Shown one piece after another: positions 1 through 50,419 of a stretch of DNA of 64,000 nucleotides. Made by a program: the position numbers and the translations under genes. The stretch lies in the NCBI RefSeq assembly GCF_057098645.1, contig NZ_CM169472.1; one strand, 5' to 3'. The stretch's first letter is position 1. Every line of letters begins with the position of its first letter. The notes beneath the pieces are model-generated. The model had not been told where the DNA came from, searched no databases, and was given only the letters and a program-made list of their open reading frames with translations.

Positions 1-1014
1 AAATGCCCTGGCACCGAAGTGCGTGAAGAGTACAAACGTGGATTCGGCGTACCGACGCTGATTGCCGTTCACCCGGAAAACGATCCGAAAGGCGAAGGTA
101 TGGCGATCGCTAAAGCATGGGCGGCAGCAACCGGTGGTCACCGTGCGGGCGTGCTGGAATCGTCCTTCGTTGCGGAAGTGAAATCTGACCTGATGGGCGA
201 GCAAACCATTCTGTGCGGTATGTTGCAGGCTGGCTCGCTGCTGTGCTTCGACAAGCTGGTGGAAGAAGGCACCGACCCGGCATATGCAGAAAAACTGATT
301 CAGTTCGGCTGGGAAACCATCACCGAAGCGCTGAAACAGGGCGGCATCACCCTGATGATGGACCGTCTCTCTAACCCGGCGAAACTGCGTGCTTACGCGC
401 TGTCAGAACAGCTGAAAGAGATCATGGCGCCGCTGTTCCAGAAACATATGGACGACATCATCTCCGGCGAATTCTCCTCCGGTATGATGGCGGACTGGGC
501 CAACGATGATAAGAAACTGCTGACCTGGCGTGAAGAGACCGGCAAAACCGCGTTTGAAACCGCGCCGCAGTATGAAGGCAAAATCGGCGAGCAGGAGTAC
601 TTCGATAAAGGCGTACTGATGATCGCGATGGTGAAAGCGGGCGTTGAGCTGGCATTTGAAACCATGGTTGATTCCGGCATCATCGAAGAATCTGCTTACT
701 ATGAATCACTGCACGAACTGCCGCTGATTGCCAACACCATCGCCCGTAAGCGTCTGTACGAAATGAACGTGGTTATCTCTGATACCGCCGAGTACGGTAA
801 CTATCTGTTCTCTTACGCTTGTGTGCCGTTGCTGAAACCGTTTATGGCAGAGCTGCAACCGGGCGACCTGGGTAAAGCTATTCCGGAAGGTGCGGTAGAT
901 AACGCGCAACTGCGTGATGTGAACGAAGCGATTCGCAGCCATGCAATTGAGCAGGTAGGTAAGAAACTGCGCGGCTATATGACAGATATGAAACGCATTG
1001 CTGTTGCGGGTTAA
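1..1014 (+). CDS. ilvC: ketol-acid reductoisomerase, 3' portion; gene begins upstream of the window (ORF-track start at 19 is an artefact)
   Basis: 331-aa in-frame translation ending at stop 1012-1014 matches the C-terminal domain of KARI; convergent with ppiC across a shared hairpin. Confidence 0.9.
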
Positions 1015-1030
1015 TAGCGATTCAGAGTTC

Positions 1031-1055
1031 AAGGCCTTCTCCCGGAGAAGGCCTT
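1031..1055. terminator. bidirectional hairpin between convergent ilvC and ppiC
   Basis: inverted repeat aaggccttc / gaaggcctt immediately after both stop codons. Confidence 0.6.
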
Positions 1056-1059
1056 ACTG

Positions 1060-1365
<306 letters not shown>

Positions 1366-1539
1366 TCAGGCGGCGATTTTAGCATGATCCGCAGATGCTA
1401 ACGTAATTGTCAGTCAGGGAGGGGCTGGTACATATATGGCAAAAGCCCGGAAAATCCGGGCTTCGCAGGTCCCTCAAGGGGAGAAAACTTAGGGCCTCTA
1501 TGGGCTACAAAGTCATTATCGGGGATGGTGATTTTATTG

Positions 1540-2043
1540 TCAATTTATGAGCGATATGGCATTGATTGACTTGATGACCGCCCTCTGTATGTCTGCAACC
1601 AACTCATGTGGCAAACATTGATTAAGATACCCTCTGTAAGTTCTTGCTCTGTTTAATCTGTTTCGACTGACTTGTTGTACCAGGTCGGCTTTGGCCCAAC
1701 GAATCTGCTGATCAAAGAATTGCAGGTCATTGATAATATTACTGGCTATTTCAACATGCATTCCACGATTTAACTTGTCATGGTCGCGAGTGGTTGATAA
1801 TGGAACGACGATACATGCGTTGCCATTAATTTTTCCGTTGAGCACGACAACTAACCTGTTTTTTATCATTTCAGGAGGAATGCGGCCATCGTAATACGTG
1901 GTGCTGAACGGTCCATTTTGGCTAACAGGATAGTTACCAAAGTTGCATTCCAGTATTTCACCAACCTTAGGGCTGAAATTAATCGCCACGAGTAAACCTC
2001 TCCTTAGTAAACTCTGAAAAAGTAATAACACAACGTTACGACC
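1540..2043 (-). pseudogene. yifN: orphan PemK/MazF-family toxin-like ORF (yifN-like); 5' region abutted by IS2, no antitoxin partner visible; an intact reading frame from GTG at 2031 is possible
   Basis: translation contains MazF/PemK-like motifs (GEILECNFG..., PPEMIKNRLVVVLNG, ACIVVPLSTT); the ORF-track N-terminus (2044-2178) lies inside IS2 and is fortuitous. Confidence 0.5.
2039..2043. repeat. IS2 target-site duplication, left copy (CGACC)
   Basis: identical 5-mer directly flanks both IS2 termini (2039-2043 and 3375-3379). Confidence 0.8.
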
Positions 2044-2134
2044 TAGACTGGCCCCCTGAATCTCCAGACAACCAGTATCACTTAAATAAGTGATAGTCTT
2101 AATACTAGTTTTTAGACTAGTCATTGGAGAACAG

Positions 2135-2500
2135 ATGATTGATGTCTTAGGGCCGGAGAAACGCAGACGGCGTACCACACAGGAAAAGATCGCAATTGTT
2201 CAGCAGAGCTTTGAACCGGGGATGACGGTCTCCCTCGTTGCCCGGCAACATGGTGTAGCAGCCAGCCAGTTATTTCTCTGGCGTAAGCAATACCAGGAAG
2301 GAAGTCTTACTGCTGTGGCCGCCGGAGAACAGGTTGTTCCTGCCTCTGAACTTGCTGCCGCCATGAAGCAGATTAAAGAACTCCAGCGCCTGCTCGGCAA
2401 GAAAACGATGGAAAATGAACTCCTCAAAGAAGCCGTTGAATATGGACGGGCAAAAAAGTGGATAGCGCACGCGCCCTTATTGCCCGGGGATGGGGAGTAA
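2135..2500 (+). CDS. insC: IS2 OrfA (InsC), helix-turn-helix regulator/transposase N-terminal part
   Basis: 121-aa product [56 protein letters not shown]... Confidence 0.93.
2452..2458 (+). promoter_or_regulatory. programmed -1 ribosomal frameshift heptamer AAAAAAG joining insC to insD
   Basis: A6G motif sits in the orfA/orfB overlap, as in IS3-family elements. Confidence 0.7.
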
Positions 2501-3363
2501 GCTTAGTCAGCCGTTGTCTCCGGGTGTCGCGTGCGCAGTTGCACGTCATTCTCAGACGAACCGATGACTGGATGGATGGCCGCCGCAGTCGTCACACTGA
2601 TGATACGGATGTGCTTCTCCGTATACACCATGTTATCGGAGAGCTGCCCACGTATGGTTATCGTCGGGTATGGGCGCTGCTTCGCAGACAGGCAGAACTT
2701 GATGGTATGCCTGCGATCAATGCCAAACGTGTTTACCGGATCATGCGCCAGAATGCGCTGTTGCTTGAGCGAAAACCTGCTGTACCGCCATCGAAACGGG
2801 CACATACAGGCAGAGTGGCCGTGAAAGAAAGCAATCAGCGATGGTGCTCTGACGGGTTCGAGTTCTGCTGTGATAACGGAGAGAGACTGCGTGTCACGTT
2901 CGCGCTGGACTGCTGTGATCGTGAGGCACTGCACTGGGCGGTGACTACCGGCGGCTTCAACAGTGAAACAGTACAGGACGTCATGCTGGGAGCGGTGGAA
3001 CGCCGCTTCGGCAACGATCTTCCGTCGTCTCCAGTGGAGTGGCTGACGGATAATGGTTCATGCTACCGGGCTAATGAAACACGCCAGTTCGCCCGGATGT
3101 TGGGACTTGAACCGAAGAACACGGCGGTGCGGAGTCCGGAGAGTAACGGAATAGCAGAGAGCTTCGTGAAAACGATAAAGCGTGACTACATCAGTATCAT
3201 GCCCAAACCAGACGGGTTAACGGCAGCAAAGAACCTTGCAGAGGCGTTCGAGCATTATAACGAATGGCATCCGCATAGTGCGCTGGGTTATCGCTCGCCA
3301 CGGGAATATCTGCGGCAGCGGGCTTGTAATGGGTTAAGTGATAACAGATGTCTGGAAATATAG
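2458..3363 (+). CDS. insD: IS2 OrfB (InsD), DDE transposase catalytic part; normally expressed as an InsCD fusion
   Basis: 301-aa ORF with integrase-core (DDE) motifs, in the -1 frame relative to insC. Confidence 0.93.
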
Positions 3364-3374
3364 GGGCAAATCCA

Positions 3375-3379
3375 CGACC
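3375..3379. repeat. IS2 target-site duplication, right copy (CGACC)
   Basis: matches 2039-2043. Confidence 0.8.
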
Positions 3380-3541
3380 CGATATTTTCTAAGTCTAATG
3401 GATTCACGATGAACTCCGATTTCGGTCTTCTCTCTCTGATTTAAACATCCGCAGCCAACCGGTTAGCGGCTTACACGCGGTCACATTCAAATGCGATTCT
3501 GCTACAATCCTCCCCCCGTTCGAAGATTGAGCAATACACCT

Positions 3542-5563
3542 ATGCGTCTAAACCCCGGCCAACAACAAGCTGTCGAATTCGTTACCGGCCCCTGCCTGGT
3601 GCTGGCGGGCGCGGGTTCCGGTAAAACTCGCGTGATCACCAATAAAATCGCCCATCTGATCCGCGGTTGCGGTTATCAGGCGCGACATATCGCGGCGGTG
3701 ACCTTTACCAATAAGGCGGCGCGCGAGATGAAAGAGCGTGTAGGGCAGACGCTGGGGCGCAAAGAGGCGCGTGGGCTGATGATCTCCACTTTCCATACGT
3801 TGGGGCTGGATATCATCAAACGCGAGTATGCGGCGCTTGGGATGAAAGCGAACTTCTCGTTGTTTGACGATACCGATCAGCTTGCTTTGCTTAAAGAGTT
3901 GACCGAGGGGCTGATTGAAGATGACAAAGTTCTCCTGCAACAACTGATTTCGACCATCTCTAACTGGAAGAACGATCTCAAAACTCCGGCGCAGGCGGCG
4001 GCAGAGGCAAAGGGCGAGCGGGATCGTATTTTTGCCCATTGTTATGGGCTGTATGATGCACACCTGAAAGCCTGTAACGTTCTCGACTTCGATGACCTGA
4101 TTTTATTGCCGACGTTGCTGCTGCAACGCAATGAAGAAGTACGCGAACGCTGGCAGAACAAAATTCGCTACCTGCTGGTGGATGAGTATCAGGACACCAA
4201 CACCAGCCAGTATGAACTGGTGAAACTGCTGGTGGGCAGCCGCGCGCGCTTTACCGTGGTGGGTGACGATGACCAGTCGATCTACTCCTGGCGCGGTGCA
4301 CGTCCGCAAAACCTGGTGCTGCTGAGTCAGGATTTTCCGGCGCTGAAGGTGATTAAGCTTGAGCAGAACTATCGCTCTTCCGGGCGTATTCTGAAAGCGG
4401 CGAACATCCTGATCGCCAATAACCCGCACGTCTTTGAAAAGCGTCTGTTCTCCGAACTGGGTTACGGCACAGAGCTAAAAGTTTTAAGCGCGAATAACGA
4501 GGAACATGAAGCCGAGCGCGTTACTGGCGAGCTGATCGCCCATCACTTCGTCAATAAAACGCAGTACAAAGATTACGCCATTCTTTATCGCGGCAACCAT
4601 CAGTCGCGGGTATTTGAAAAATTCCTGATGCAAAACCGCATCCCGTACAAAATATCCGGTGGTACGTCGTTTTTCTCTCGTCCTGAAATCAAGGACTTGC
4701 TGGCTTATCTGCGCGTGCTGACTAACCCGGACGATGACAGCGCATTTCTGCGTATCGTTAACACGCCGAAGCGAGAGATTGGCCCGGCGACGCTGAAAAA
4801 GTTGGGTGAATGGGCGATGACGCGCAATAAAAGCATGTTTACCGCCAGCTTTGATATGGGCCTGAGTCAGACGCTTAGCGGACGTGGTTATGAAGCATTG
4901 ACCCGCTTCACTCACTGGTTGGCAGAAATCCAGCGTCTGGCGGAGCGGGAGCCGATTGCCGCGGTGCGTGATCTGATCCATGGCATGGATTATGAATCCT
5001 GGCTGTACGAAACATCGCCCAGCCCGAAAGCCGCCGAAATGCGCATGAAGAACGTCAACCAACTGTTTAGCTGGATGACGGAGATGCTGGAAGGCAGTGA
5101 ACTGGATGAGCCGATGACGCTCACCCAGGTGGTGACGCGCTTTACTTTGCGCGACATGATGGAGCGTGGTGAGAGTGAAGAAGAGCTGGATCAGGTGCAA
5201 CTGATGACTCTCCACGCGTCAAAAGGACTGGAGTTTCCTTATGTCTACATGGTCGGTATGGAAGAAGGGTTTTTGCCGCACCAGAGCAGTATCGATGAAG
5301 ATAATATCGATGAGGAGCGGCGGCTGGCCTATGTCGGCATTACCCGCGCCCAGAAGGAATTGACCTTTACGCTGTGTAAAGAACGCCGTCAGTACGGCGA
5401 ACTGGTGCGCCCGGAGCCGAGCCGCTTTTTGCTGGAGCTGCCGCAGGATGATCTGATTTGGGAACAGGAGCGCAAAGTGGTCAGCGCCGAAGAACGGATG
5501 CAGAAAGGGCAAAGCCATCTGGCGAATCTGAAAGCGATGATGGCGGCAAAACGAGGGAAATAA
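3542..5563 (+). CDS. rep: ATP-dependent DNA helicase Rep (SF1)
   Basis: 673-aa product from ATG 3542 ([29 protein letters not shown]...), Walker A and UvrD/Rep helicase motifs; the ORF-track start at 3491 is an upstream extension. Confidence 0.95.
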
Positions 5564-5567
5564 TCAA

Positions 5568-5601
5568 GGCCGGAAAAGATGCGTCAGCATCGCATCCGGC
5601 A
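5568..5601. repeat. REP-like palindromic element / terminator between convergent rep and gppA
   Basis: gccggaaaagatgcgtcagcatcgcatccggc inverted repeat. Confidence 0.6.
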
Positions 5602-5609
5602 CTTACTCA

Positions 5610-7094
5610 TTAATGCACTTCCAGCGGCCAGTGGACATAGCTCTGCCACTGGCTTTCCTGAGCAATAATCTCTTTACCCAGCGGATGTTGGGTTAGCCAA
5701 CCTTGCGGAAGCGTCAAGGTCAACAGTTCATGGTTAGCCTGTAATGTCATCTCTGGCACGAGATCGTCACGGCGACGGCTGGCAAAAATGATGGCCAGGC
5801 GTAGTAAACGGCAGAGTTGTTCTGCGACGCGCGGCGGTACGGCATTTTGCTGATGCAGCGATGAGAGATCGATCGGATTAGTCTGGTTGAGCAGTAGTGT
5901 CGCCAGCAATTTTTTCTGTGCGGGGGTAAAACCGGGAAGATCCAGATTACGCACCAGATAAGCAGCGTGTTGCGGCGCTTGTTTGAAGTCAACGCTCAGG
6001 CCGATTTCATGAAGCTGACAGGCGCTGATGAGCAAATCGCGGCTTATTGCTTCAAGATGCCATTCGTTTTCCACCTGATCGAAGAAGTTAGCCGCAACTT
6101 TGGCTACGCGCTGTGCCTGATCAATATCGATCATAAAGCGGCGTTGAATATTACGCAGCGTACGGCTGCGAATATCCTGCTCGACGGCCAGATGCAACAT
6201 GCCGTAGACCAGGCCTTCACGCAGCGCACCGCCCGCCAGGGTCATACACTGAATATTCAGTTCGGTAAAAATGGCGATCAGGATCGCCAGACCACTCGGG
6301 AACACTAACGCACGTTCCAGCGTCAGCCCGTCAATCTCTAGCTCTTCCAGCCGACCGCAATGAATGGCGCGTTGTTTCAGTTGCTGCAACTTTTCCAGGG
6401 TAATGCGTTCATCCATCCCCTGTGCCATCATGATTTCCTGTAACGCCTGCACGGTGCCGGAAGCACCAACGCACACTTTCCAGCCGTGATACCGTAATTC
6501 ATCGGCAACCGGACGTAACACTTCGCGTGCCGCTTTTTCTGCAGCATCAAAATTTTCCTGCCCCAGATTACGATCGGCAAAATAGCGTTCCAGCCAGGTG
6601 ACGCAGCCCATCGACAGGCTGAACAACGAGGTGGTTTGTGCACCCGTGCCGGTTACCAGTTCAGTACTGGCTCCGCCTATATCCACCACCAGGCGCTGAT
6701 CGGCACCACCAGTGGTGTGAGCAACGCCCTGATAAATCAGACGTGCTTCCTCTTCACCGCTGATCACCTGTACCGGACAACCGAGAATTTCCTGCGCTTT
6801 GGCAATAAAATCACCCGCATTGACGGCAAGGCGTAACGTCGCCGTAGCGACAACGCGAATTTGCGAGGGAGGAATATCTTGCAGACGTTCAGCAAACAGG
6901 CGCAGACATTGCCAACCGCGCTCCATTGCTTCATTGGAGAGGGCATTTTCGCTATTCAGGCCAGCAGCCAGACGCACTTTGCGTTTTATTCGCGTCAGCG
7001 TCTGGATGCTTCCAGCCACCTCGCGCACAACCAGCATATGAAAACTATTCGAACCGAGATCAATGGCTGCATACAGCGACGAGGTGGAACCCAT
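5610..7094 (-). CDS. gppA: guanosine pentaphosphate phosphohydrolase / exopolyphosphatase
   Basis: Ppx/GppA-family [26 protein letters not shown]... N-terminus. Confidence 0.93.
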
Positions 7095-7139
7095 ACTCTT
7101 CATCCTTCAATCTGTCTCTGTGTTGGCTGCATTCTTTCA

Positions 7140-7171
7140 CCTGAATCACTTACTACAGTAAGTGATTCAGG
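7140..7171. terminator. perfect 15-bp-arm inverted repeat (2-nt spacer) between the rhlB 3' end and gppA 5' end
   Basis: cctgaatcacttact-ac-agtaagtgattcagg. Confidence 0.5.
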
Positions 7172-7227
7172 ATTCATTCTCTTGCCATCTTGATACAGTT
7201 TGAATGATTTTGAGTATGACATTTTAT

Positions 7228-8493
7228 TTAACCTGAACGACGACGATTACGCGGAGCGCCAGTACGACGCGGACCATTGCCTGTACGTGGGCGCGTGAGG
7301 CGCAGCGGTTTTGGCAGATCGGTCATCAATGTGTCCGGATTGTATTTGCTTACCGGAATTGAGTGACCAATATAGGTTTCAATAGCAGGCAAATTCAATG
7401 CATACTCTTCACACGCCAGGCTGATAGAGTGACCGCTTGCGCCTGCGCGACCTGTACGACCAATACGGTGAACGTAATCTTCACAGTCATCGGGTAAATC
7501 GTAGTTAAAGACGTGCGTCACTGCCGGAATATGCAAACCACGCGCGGCAACGTCGGTGGCAACCAGAATATCCAGATCGCCACGGGTAAATTCATCAAGA
7601 ATACGCAGACGTTTTTTCTGCGCGACATCGCCTGTCAACAAACCGACACGATGACCATCTGCCGCCAGGTGGCCCCAGATCTCTTCACAACGGTGTTTGG
7701 TATTGGCGAAAATAATCGCTCTGTCTGGCCACTCTTCTTCGATCAGCGTTTGCAGCAAACGCATTTTTTCTTCGTTAGAAGGGTAGAAAAGCTCTTCTTT
7801 AATACGGTGGCCCGTTTTCTGTTCCGGTTCCACTTCAATATATTCGGCATTGTTCATCTGCTCGAACGCCAGTTCACGTACCCGGTACGAAAGCGTGGCG
7901 GAGAACAGCATGTTGAGGCGCTGGTTTGCAGGCGGCATACGGCGGAACAGCCAGCGGATATCTTTAATAAAGCCCAGATCGTACATGCGATCGGCTTCGT
8001 CCAGTACCACTACCTGAATGGCACCGAGGTTAATGTGGTTCTGCTTGGCGTAGTCAATTAAACGACCCGTGGTGCCAATCAGAATGTCAACGCCGCTTTC
8101 CAGCACTTTCAGCTGTTTGTCGTAACCATCACCACCGTAAGCCAGACCCAGCTTCAGGCCGGTAGCTTCCGCCAGCGGTTCCGCATCGGCATGGATCTGC
8201 ACGGCAAGTTCACGCGTCGGTGCCATAATTAAGGCACGCGGCTGATTCACCTTGCGATCGGCAATCGCAGGATGAGAGAGAAGATAATGAAACGTTGACG
8301 TAAGAAACGCCATCGTTTTCCCGGTACCGGTTTGCGCCTGCCCGGCTACGTCACGACCCGCCAGCGTCAGCGGAAGGGCCAGTGCCTGAATGGGCGTACA
8401 GTTATGAAACCCTTTTTTTTCAAGGGCTTCTACAACCTTCGGATGCAGGGCGAAGTCGGAAAACTTCTGTTCTGTTAAATGTGTTTTGCTCAT
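7228..8493 (-). CDS. rhlB: ATP-dependent RNA helicase RhlB (degradosome DEAD-box helicase)
   Basis: 421-aa ORF with DEAD-box motifs ([12 protein letters not shown]), Arg-rich C-terminus. Confidence 0.95.
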
Positions 8494-8623
8494 AGTGTGG
8501 TAGAATATCAGCTTACTATTGCTTTACGAAAGCGTATCCGGTGAAATAAAGTCAACCTTTAGTTGGTTAATGTTACACCAACAACGAAACCAACACGCCA
8601 GGCTTATTCCTGTGGAGTTATAT

Positions 8624-8953
8624 ATGAGCGATAAAATTATTCACCTGACTGACGACAGTTTTGACACGGATGTACTCAAAGCGGACGGGGCGATCCTCGT
8701 CGATTTCTGGGCAGAGTGGTGCGGTCCGTGCAAAATGATCGCCCCGATTCTGGATGAAATCGCTGACGAATATCAGGGCAAACTGACCGTTGCAAAACTG
8801 AACATCGATCAAAACCCTGGCACTGCGCCGAAATATGGCATCCGTGGTATCCCGACTCTGCTGCTGTTCAAAAACGGTGAAGTGGCGGCAACCAAAGTGG
8901 GCGCACTGTCTAAAGGTCAGTTGAAAGAGTTCCTCGACGCTAACCTGGCGTAA
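8624..8953 (+). CDS. trxA: thioredoxin 1
   Basis: [50 protein letters not shown]..., WCGPC active site; start ATG 8624 inside the longer track ORF. Confidence 0.96.
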
Positions 8954-47759: not shown

Positions 47760-48710
47760 ATGCTGAGCGCATTTCAACTGGAAAATAACCGACTGACCCG
47801 GCTGGAAGTCGAAGAGTCACAACCCCTTGTAAATGCAGTATGGATTGATCTTGTCGAACCGGACGACGACGAGCGACTGCGCGTACAATCTGAACTTGGC
47901 CAGAGCCTGGCAACCCGCCCGGAACTGGAAGACATCGAAGCATCGGCACGTTTCTTTGAAGACGACGACGGCCTGCATATTCACTCCTTCTTCTTCTTTG
48001 AAGATGCGGAAGATCACGCCGGTAACTCCACTGTGGCATTTACCATCCGTGATGGTCGTCTGTTTACTCTGCGTGAGCGTGAACTGCCCGCTTTTCGTCT
48101 GTATCGTATGCGTGCCCGTAGCCAGTCGATGGTAGACGGTAACGCCTACGAGTTGCTGCTGGATTTGTTCGAAACCAAAATCGAACAGTTGGCAGATGAA
48201 ATTGAAAATATCTATAGCGACCTGGAGCAATTGAGCCGGGTGATTATGGAAGGGCATCAGGGCGATGAGTACGACGAGGCGCTCTCCACTCTGGCGGAAC
48301 TGGAAGATATCGGCTGGAAAGTTCGCCTGTGTCTGATGGATACCCAGCGCGCTCTCAACTTCCTGGTACGTAAAGCACGCTTACCGGGTGGGCAACTGGA
48401 GCAGGCGCGTGAAATCCTGCGAGATATCGAATCCCTGCTGCCGCATAACGAATCCCTGTTCCAGAAGGTGAACTTCCTGATGCAGGCGGCAATGGGTTTT
48501 ATCAACATCGAGCAGAACCGCATCATCAAAATTTTCTCGGTGGTATCCGTCGTGTTCCTGCCGCCAACGCTGGTTGCTTCCAGCTACGGGATGAACTTTG
48601 AGTTTATGCCAGAACTGAAGTGGAGTTTCGGCTACCCAGGCGCGATTATCTTTATGATCCTCGCGGGCCTGGCACCGTATCTGTACTTTAAGCGGAAGAA
48701 CTGGTTGTAA
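47760..48710 (+). CDS. corA: magnesium/cobalt transport protein CorA
   Basis: 316-aa product [31 protein letters not shown]... ending ...[41 protein letters not shown] (GMN motif). Confidence 0.96.
48574..48710 (+). repeat. direct repeat copy 1: corA 3' terminus (about 94-95% identical to 50277-50413)
   Basis: base-by-base alignment of the two stretches shows the same length, no indels and a handful of substitutions. Confidence 0.85.
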
Positions 48711-48717
48711 TATGAGT

Positions 48718-50209: not shown

Positions 50210-50413
50210 TTGGTTTTGCCCATTGTTAATAACAATATGTTGAATTTACCGATTAGGAAACTTTTTCCTACGCGGATTGCCTCCAGCTATGGGATGAACT
50301 TTGAGTTTATGCCAGAACTGAAGTGGAGTTTCGGCTACCCTGGCGCGATTATCTTTATGATCCTCGCGGGCCTGGCACCGCATCTGTACTTTAAGCGTAA
50401 GAACTGGCTGTAA
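50210..50413 (+). pseudogene. displaced corA 3' fragment (last ~46 codons, [11 protein letters not shown] end); not an independent gene
   Basis: 67-aa ORF whose C-terminal 45 residues equal the CorA C-terminus with one Y to H change; no corA N-terminal region upstream. Confidence 0.8.
50277..50413 (+). repeat. direct repeat copy 2 of the corA 3' terminus
   Basis: offset of exactly 1703 bp from copy 1. Confidence 0.85.
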
Positions 50414-50419
50414 CTATAC

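Follow-up and report, generated by a model that had tools for sequence, protein, structure and literature searches.

The window, a stretch of 64,000 nucleotides from contig NZ_CM169472.1 of the RefSeq assembly GCF_057098645.1, carries a complete copy of IS2, an element of the IS3 family of 1331 bp (2044..3374, + strand), which is inserted in the divergent intergenic region between yifN and rep. On its left, yifN (1540..1989, - strand; GTG start at 1989) codes for an intact PemK/MazF-family toxin-like protein of 149 aa (Pfam PemK_toxin, E = 9.4e-11), and in O157 and O145 genomes the gene bears the annotation of a type II toxin-antitoxin PemK/MazF family toxin. On its right, the retained native yifN-rep intergenic DNA (3380..3541, + strand), which is 100% identical to that of O145 and O157 strains, leads to rep (3542..5563, + strand; ATG at 3542-3544), an open reading frame that codes for an intact DNA helicase Rep with the 673 aa expected of this protein. 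The last base of IS2 and the A of the rep ATG are separated by 167 bp (3542-3374 = 168), and a first-pass annotation, which placed the right end of IS2 at 3374, 168 bp from the rep ATG at 3542 and in the same orientation, gave coordinates that match the sequence exactly.

The element is flanked on both sides by a perfect 5-bp direct duplication of the target, CGACC (left copy 2039..2043, right copy 3375..3379), and its first and last letters read TAGACTGGCCCCC and GGGGCAAATCCA, respectively. The 42-bp left inverted repeat (IRL, 2044..2085, + strand) starts with TAGACTGG and has a TA tip, while the 41-bp right inverted repeat (IRR, 3334..3374, + strand) ends with AATCCA and has a CA tip, the two lengths being those published for IS2 (PMC3299598); an oligonucleotide with the IRL sequence has also been published (PMC3219604). 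Inward of the IRL, TGaTAGTCT (2091..2099, + strand) putatively corresponds to PIRL, the weak promoter of extended -10 type that serves the transposase genes; it was matched to the published description and oligonucleotide of PIRL (PMC3219604). The coding part consists of insC (orfA; 2135..2500, + strand; 121 aa; Pfam HTH_Tnp_1, E = 1.8e-19), of the A6G window of programmed -1 frameshifting (AAAAAAG, 2452..2458, + strand; motif as in PMC3219604), and of the insD (orfB) frame (2458..3363, + strand), taken from the list of open reading frames, with a DDE integrase core (Pfam rve, 1.1e-18, rve_3, and HTH_21). Length and inverted repeats, orfA and orfB with the A6G frameshift, the 5-bp duplication, and near-identity to annotated copies all assign the element to IS2; specifically, its identity is 99.7% to the W3110-P copy, whose annotation reads "IS3-like element IS2 family transposase", and 99.4-99.85% to the annotated IS2 of W3110-P, ST540, MB06101, and N51. 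In comparison with the known E. coli IS2 (insC/insD), it shares the length, the imperfect 42/41-bp repeats, the A6G frameshift, the HTH and rve domains, and the 5-bp duplication, and it shows no structural difference; one IRL base differs (a G at IRL position 32, window position 2075, where the published IS2 and the copy of Z226-5 have an A), and the chromosomal location is new.

The nearest genomes to the window are those of O145:H28 strains in which the site is empty. With E. coli O145:H28 RM13514, identity is 100% over positions 1-2043 and 99.96% across the next 47.9 kb, the IS2 insertion is the sole structural difference, and the empty site of RM13514 contains CGACC only once. The exact junction of the window is carried by none of 5426 complete E. 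coli genomes (0/5426), and, because it is absent from all of them and the near-identical RM13514 has an empty site, the insertion appears to be recent. On these genome comparisons, it is best read as a strain-specific copy-out/paste-in event that delivered an intact IS2 to the divergent yifN-rep region of an O145:H28-like chromosome, and the IS2 copy may be employed as a clean lineage marker to tell this O145:H28-like strain from its sequenced relatives with the empty site.

The predicted native promoter of rep lies entirely within the retained intergenic DNA. It consists of GTCACA, a 17-bp spacer, and TACAAT with an upstream TG (3480..3508, + strand, with the extended -10 TGcTACAAT at 3500-3508), it was located by promoter scan and conservation, and it is the sole sigma-70-like site that the scan found in 1900-3700. 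The extended -10 follows the end of IS2 at a distance of 125 bp, and transcription is predicted to start near 3515. In 47 unique enterobacterial sequences from upstream of rep, including those of Hafnia and Edwardsiella, conservation of the core CTTTCTGCTACAATC is 90% or more, and the core is located 32-36 bp before the rep ATG in 42 of the 48 loci. The element thus combines the TGn, the A at position 2, and the T at position 6 of an extended -10 sigma-70 promoter with conservation and a suitable distance from the ATG. Upstream of the extended -10 block, no conserved sequence is found across the 47 enterobacterial regions; in Hafnia and Edwardsiella this stretch is unalignable, and the terminator hairpin of another gene often lies in it within about 25-50 bp. 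The cross-genus comparison narrows the promoter of rep down to a short element of the extended -10 type, which is predicted to belong to rep itself and to be untouched by IS2. As IS2 leaves this promoter as it is, rep would still be transcribed from TGcTACAAT (3500-3508) and its expression is probably unchanged; with both the helicase gene and its conserved promoter intact, the insertion should have little consequence for the biology of rep, and any change in expression is expected to be small.

The first-pass annotation had proposed that rep expression may be altered in this strain, either by read-through from IS2 or by a hybrid promoter, on the ground that IS2 is known to affect neighbouring genes. 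The ground is documented: IS2 activates both ampC and acrEF through fusion promoters (PMC9330008, PMC9783932), and, in these cases as at rep, the same element has an end facing a downstream chromosomal gene. For the hybrid promoter, the proposal would be that, in the way known from ampC, the -35 of the IRR combines with a -10-like hexamer of the flank into a new promoter directed at rep. Fusion promoters are indeed reported for ampC, acrEF, and neoR (PMC9330008, PMC3299598, PMC3219604), and the outward -35 in the IRR is employed in the promoter of the minicircle junction, where the IRR contributes 16 bp and the junction 1 bp to the 17-bp spacer and the -10 is located at the IRL tip (PMC3299598, PMC3219604). 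However, this outward -35 functions only with a 17-bp spacer (PMC3219604, PMC3299598), and the position that can be deduced for it from the published spacer (TGGAAA, 3353..3358, + strand) leaves it facing GACCCG at 17 bp (3376-3381), with CGACCC and ACCCGA as the 16- and 18-bp alternatives. Since GACCCG occupies the -10 position at the mandatory spacing, no hybrid promoter is expected, and the outward -35 of IS2 would remain without a -10 partner in the flank. At ampC, on the contrary, IS2 placed its -35 17 bp from a resident -10 (Jaurin and Normark 1983; PMC9330008). Moreover, the promoter scan across the IS2-flank junction found no promoter-like site, and the -10-like GATATT (3381-3386) and TATTTT (3383-3388) of the flank have no -35-like partner. 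The published geometry of Pjunc set against the flank sequence, together with the scan, rules out the hybrid promoter as a candidate, and a new promoter toward rep is extremely improbable.

Read-through has a firmer physical basis. The transposase genes and rep lie on the same strand and run in the same direction, as the first-pass annotation had pointed out for insD, and the scan found no terminator-like sites in 1900-3700 and thus none between insD and rep. Folding of the RNA of 3340-3545 shows nothing out of the ordinary (z = -0.22), the junction is devoid of a stable hairpin, and an Rfam search of 1-8500 gave no match; with the scan, the fold, and Rfam all empty, the idea that a terminator or a structured RNA lies between the two genes was discarded. 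Co-direction, the lack of a terminator, the unremarkable fold, and the IS2 activation documented elsewhere make read-through physically possible, and it is this part of the altered-rep interpretation that stands, whereas its hybrid-promoter route fails and rep retains the native promoter. Co-orientation and the lack of a terminator-like site or of a stable junction hairpin would permit transcripts from PIRL or from outside IS2 to run through insCD and the IRR into rep and to raise the Rep helicase measurably. Such an activation would also be in line with the orientation of the independent IS2 insertions known in this interval, seven of eight of which share that of rep, and with the activation of the acrEF operon by IS2 located 86-90 bp upstream of acrE (PMC9783932), because of which an action of IS2 over some 100 bp is conceivable in principle. 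Conversely, PIRL, the indigenous E-10 promoter, is described as weak, and the IRL contains a sequence to which OrfA binds in its role as a repressor (PMC3299598, PMC3219604). The same-strand genes upstream of the element stop at ilvC, and, since ilvC ends at 1014 and ppiC and yifN are oppositely oriented, no strong transcription is expected to enter IS2. In addition, acrEF is silent without an IS (PMC9783932), whereas rep is not silent and has a conserved promoter of its own, and in ST540 the same site is occupied by an IS2 in the opposite orientation. A measurable rise of Rep helicase by read-through is therefore judged unlikely; at most, a weak trickle from the weak, OrfA-repressed PIRL would possibly reach rep across the terminator-free stretch between insD and the gene.

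The comparison of natural and laboratory genomes, from which the inference of a hot spot is drawn, indicates that the window is one of several cases in which IS2 has landed in this place. Eight independent IS2 insertions, told apart by distinct target duplications or by orientation, fall within 450 bp of the yifN-rep interval, and control loci of similar or lower GC show 1 and 0 independent IS2 events. Three insertions lie within 1 bp of each other, one of them in the opposite orientation, and involve two IS2 sequence variants and both orientations: besides the window, there is Z226-5, in which an IS2 variant of 97.8% identity lies 1 bp away with ACGAC as its target duplication, and ST540, whose IS2 occupies the same CGACC but is oriented the other way. 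The other insertions occupy five further positions, the farthest of them about 610 bp upstream of rep. With a GC content of 0.40-0.44, the interval is poorer in GC than its flanks (0.50-0.58). Insertions that arose independently at one nucleotide or at neighbouring ones, in a cluster denser than at the control loci, mark a hot spot, so that this AT-rich, apparently dispensable interval of about 450 bp is best described as a recurrent target of IS2. The insertions within 1 bp, the opposite orientation at the same site, and the five other positions favour target preference, and the pattern argues for such a preference rather than for selection on rep, although the co-orientation of 7 of the 8 insertions with rep (two-sided binomial p ~0.07) could instead result from selection acting through some effect on either rep or yifN.

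Regional IS2 insertion hot spots were reportedly described by Sengstag and Arber in 1983 and 1987, for example in bacteriophage P1; the yifN-rep interval resembles those of P1 in its non-random clustering, short region, and lack of a strict target consensus, but it is chromosomal and is deduced from genomes rather than from a transposition assay. No earlier description of yifN-rep as an IS2 hot spot was found, and the sole related report is one table entry, which records a de novo IS2 hop into the yifN' of K-12 in experimental evolution (PMC4340650). The interval is therefore a candidate natural IS2 hot spot and a possible target for transposition assays, and IS2 hits in it in evolution experiments may be misread as adaptive.

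The gene more plausibly affected than rep is yifN. The insertion lies 54 bp upstream of its GTG, and all native DNA farther upstream than these 54 bp is now 1.3 kb away, beyond IS2; this PemK-like toxin homologue is cut off from that DNA and would be likelier than rep to feel the insertion. The effect on yifN is presented as an inference from this layout because the promoter scan gave no minus-strand yifN promoter, no minus-strand promoter-like match being present in the intergenic region. The first-pass annotation made no mention of the divergent yifN 54 bp from the insertion. Taken together, the evidence supports, with a probability of roughly 0.7, a joint reading in which a recent and ordinary IS2 has entered a recurrently hit interval, the rep promoter has not been rebuilt, read-through amounts at most to a trickle, and yifN is the likelier of the two genes to be affected. 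The feature is an ordinary strain-specific IS2 insertion of a known kind, notable only for its repeatedly hit site.

A quite improbable extension of the effect on yifN is that selection favoured the insertion for silencing or deregulating this gene, with rep as a bystander and with the recurrence of IS2 reflecting repeated selection against yifN. Of the eight insertions, five disrupt the coding sequence of yifN and three are located 53-54 bp upstream of its start; no antitoxin-like open reading frame is evident adjoining yifN, just mechanical ones of 22-28 aa. Furthermore, yifN already carries a frameshift in Z226-5 and ST540 and is called a pseudogene in K-12 (PMC4340650), which suggests that its loss is tolerated or favoured. 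The same frameshifts, however, preceded the insertion in Z226-5 and ST540, and, since yifN was already a frameshifted pseudogene there, its inactivation would have conferred no selective advantage in these two strains. Selection against yifN also leaves the three insertions within 1 bp unexplained, and a simple knockout would not predict a strong orientation bias. Target preference, as set out above, is the reading that we retain for the recurrence.

As to what might direct IS2 to the site, the retained flank contains AGTCTA-A-TGGATT (3392..3404, + strand; found by motif search), the reverse complement of abutted IS2 tips and thus a mimic of the minicircle junction, which is probably coincidental. 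The motif (AGTCTANTGGATT) is unique in the window, where 0.2 matches would be expected at <=1 mismatch. When the entire junction is aligned locally to the target, the result does not stand out, its score being one that 45 of 312 control windows also reach; none of the five other yifN insertions has the motif nearby; and at 41 independent IS2 target sites in viral contigs it shows no enrichment over shuffled sequence. Recruitment of the transposase by AGTCTANTGGATT as a general determinant was consequently rejected, the control alignments, the five yifN sites, and the 41 targets being all against it. It is doubtful, too, that CGACC/ACGAC is a true sequence- or structure-directed hot spot and not just a place where IS2 is tolerated, that the 7:1 bias (with rep and with replication) reflects orientation-specific targeting or a benefit of IS2-driven rep transcription, and that AGTCTA-A-TGGATT recruits the transposase locally at that one site. 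Lastly, a strict IS2 target consensus was discarded, as the 41 sites show weak biases only: T seldom occupies the first duplicated base (2/41), A seldom the fifth (2/41), and C seldom position -3 (1/41).

Read directly across window positions 1900-3900, IS2 (IS3 family) occupies 1331 bp, from its left end at 2044 (TAGACTGGCCCCCTGAATCTCC) to its right end at 3374 (...GGGGCAAATCCA), and is bracketed by a perfect 5-bp direct repeat of the target, CGACC (2039-2043 and 3375-3379). The element carries insC (2135-2500; Pfam HTH_Tnp_1, 1.8e-19), the A6G frameshift window (2452-2458), and the insD frame (2458-3363; Pfam rve, 1.1e-18, plus rve_3 and HTH_21), is 99.7% identical to the annotated IS2 of the laboratory lineage W3110-P, and is an ordinary, intact, recently transposed copy. 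At position 32 of the left inverted repeat (IRL), within its inner part, the window's copy has G (window 2075; AACCAGTAT), where A is found in the oligonucleotide published for IS2 IRL and in the copy of Z226-5 (AACCAATAT). rep is oriented like the transposase genes, with 167 bp between the IS2 terminus and its start codon (ATG 3542, ORF end 5563; 673 aa, matching the Rep annotation in related genomes); the coordinates given in the first-pass annotation are exact. With an in-frame ATG at 3491, the mechanical ORF of rep reaches 690 aa (additional segment 3491-3541); as a start codon this ATG is a poor candidate, and its use is very unlikely, since it lies within the predicted promoter and upstream of the predicted transcription start.

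The sequence around the element is 100% identical to E. coli O145:H28 strain RM13514 and to a dozen further O145 strains over positions 1-2043 and matches RM13514 at 99.96% over 3374-51281, which identifies the window as essentially an O145:H28 chromosome. IS2 is the sole structural difference from RM13514, where the site is empty and holds one CGACC. The exact insertion was found in none of 5426 complete E. coli assemblies and, together with the empty site in RM13514, this absence points to a transposition that is recent and lineage-specific.

The yifN-rep interval is a recurrent target of IS2, which is a small new point. A chimeric query joining 100 bp of the IS2 right end to 200 bp of rep flank retrieved 25 records with IS2 near rep, each of which was mapped onto the empty-site reference, with distinct 5-bp duplications marking independent events. 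Insertions oriented like rep were placed at reference positions 1595 in N51 (GCAAC), 1626 in an ETEC group (GATAC; a 95.7% IS2 variant), 1651 in the W3110-P lineage (GTTTA), 1851 in EPSSH018 (CTAAC; a 97.7% variant), 1972 in MB06101 (GCTGA), 2038 in Z226-5/6 (ACGAC; a 97.8% variant with 29 mismatches), and 2039 in this window (CGACC). The Z226-5/6 insertion is therefore 1 bp from the window's site, and a mirror-image query recovered ST540, in which IS2 occupies position 2039 itself (CGACC) in the orientation opposite to rep. A ninth event is a de novo hop of IS2 into K-12 yifN' during an evolution experiment (PMC4340650). The same chimeric design was applied to two control loci of this window: the aslA-hemY intergenic region (GC 0.37) returned six records sharing one identical junction, and hence one event, and the yigE region (GC 0.435) returned no events. 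The collection holds at most ~18,500 IS2 right ends (23,950 places minus ~5,400 rep-flank places); by a rough estimate, uniform insertion would leave at most ~0.01 further copies within 1 bp of a given site, where two independent ones were observed.

Occupation of the identical site in the opposite orientation and the spread of insertions up to ~610 bp upstream of rep argue that IS2 lands here through target preference and neutrality, not through changing rep. Only the 7:1 bias towards co-orientation with rep (two-sided binomial p ~0.07) still allows for selection or orientation-specific targeting.

As to the basis of this target preference, 41 IS2 target sites collected from viral contigs (loci L130-L249), independent of one another and each with a verified 5-bp duplication, display only a weak preference of a faintly palindromic V-N-N-N-B pattern: T is rare at the first duplicated base (2/41), A at the fifth (2/41), and C at position -3 (1/41). 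CGACC is compatible with these preferences. The hot spot is accordingly treated as one of the regional, loosely specified kind that Sengstag and Arber reportedly attributed to IS2 in their P1 work; a further contribution probably comes from the tolerance of insertions by a gene that is dispensable and in many cases already pseudogenised. A separate candidate was the motif AGTCTA-A-TGGATT (3392-3404), which is unique in the window, lies 13 bases rightward of the duplication, and in reverse complement reads as two IS2 tips abutted with the correct 1-bp spacer. It is treated as a coincidence because the whole junction aligns unexceptionally with the target, none of the other five yifN insertions has the motif nearby, and motifs resembling it are not more frequent at the 41 target sites than in shuffled sequence.

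With regard to the expression of rep, a single sigma-70-like site was predicted in positions 1900-3700, GTCACA-17 bp-TACAAT with a TG just upstream (3480-3508), and it is also present in the empty-site strain. Species-representative genomes were searched for exact matches to a degenerate version of the first ten codons of rep, giving 117 loci with at least 200 bp upstream of rep, of which 48 contain TGnTAnAAT within 100 bp of the rep ATG, 32-36 bp before it in 42/48. Anchored on this element, CTTTCTGCTACAATC is conserved at 90% or more in 47 unique sequences from genera that include Klebsiella, Raoultella, Kluyvera, Lelliottia, Trabulsiella, Hafnia, and Edwardsiella. The aligned regions show no conservation upstream of the extended -10 block, and in many species the terminator hairpin of another gene lies within ~25-50 bp of the rep -10, a pattern characteristic of compact extended -10 promoters, which would need little upstream DNA. 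IS2 ends 125 bp before the promoter TG, which lies downstream of it, and every conserved element of this promoter, assigned from consensus and conservation, is thus untouched.

Across Enterobacterales, two unrelated forms of rep upstream DNA occur (window 3440-3541 set against loci L010-L129). Type A (48/117 loci, among them the E. coli window, Klebsiella, Hafnia, and Edwardsiella) contains the conserved CTTTCTGCTACAATC; in type B (58 loci, among them E. albertii, E. whittamii, Enterobacter cloacae, and Cedecea), ppiC and rep are direct divergent neighbours and GGCTATACTACCACGC replaces CTTTCTGCTACAATC. Only the last ~25 bp before the rep ATG are common to both, so the rep promoter region seems to have undergone a swap in the course of evolution.

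The first-pass annotation had proposed that IS2 might alter rep expression through a hybrid promoter or read-through. In IS2, a -35 element within the right inverted repeat (IRR) reads outward and forms a strong junction promoter with a -10 at the IRL tip, for which a 17-bp spacer is mandatory and the terminal IRR bases supply 16 of the 17 bp (PMC3219604, PMC3299598). These 16 bases place the outward -35 here at TGGAAA (3353-3358). The hexamer found 17 bp away is GACCCG (3376-3381), those at 16 and 18 bp are CGACCC and ACCCGA, and a promoter scan across the IS2-flank junction reported no site; the hybrid promoter is thereby excluded by sequence, and the IS2 fusion promoter of ampC is a mechanism without a counterpart at this junction. 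Weak read-through into rep is possible but unproven, given that positions 1900-3700 contain no terminator-like site and that RNA spanning 3340-3545 folds no more stably than shuffled sequence does (z = -0.22). Since ppiC and yifN, upstream of the element, lie on the opposite strand and ilvC ends at 1014, the only predicted source of such transcripts would be PIRL, the weak extended -10 promoter of the IS2 transposase, and IRL also contains the sequence that OrfA binds when acting as a repressor (PMC3219604, PMC3299598). Inserted 86-90 bp upstream, IS2 activates acrEF, an operon that is silent when no IS is present (PMC9783932), whereas rep has a conserved promoter.

Any functional consequence most likely falls on yifN rather than rep. 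The insertion site is a divergent intergenic region in which yifN, an intact 149-aa PemK/MazF-family gene (1540-1989, minus strand; Pfam 9.4e-11 and annotation), runs leftward from a GTG start just 54 bp from the IS2 left end. yifN and the adjoining intergenic DNA (1540-2043, 3380-3480) form an AT-rich patch with a GC of 0.40-0.44 versus 0.50-0.58 in both flanks, and the ilvC-ppiC-yifN segment is covered at 80% or more in just 4012/5425 genomes, so the region is variable between E. coli strains; in Z226-5 and ST540, yifN is frameshifted. In the mechanical ORF list, the yifN frame continues uninterrupted across the IS2 left end to a GTG at 2178 (212 aa; minus strand, 1540-2178), and leftward transcription out of IS2 could in principle yield an N-terminally extended YifN.

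Elsewhere in the window, the Rfam TrxA 5' UTR thermometer (RF02773, 78.8 bits) lies at 8554-8653 on the plus strand upstream of trxA, as expected at this locus. A 150-bp segment from the 3' end of corA (48564-48713) is repeated ~1.7 kb downstream at 50267-50417 with 93% identity, where RM13514 is annotated with a partial CorA-family pseudogene; the repeat brackets AT-rich DUF943 and YPO3983-family genes (GC ~0.30), and the arrangement looks like an island that inserted beside corA.
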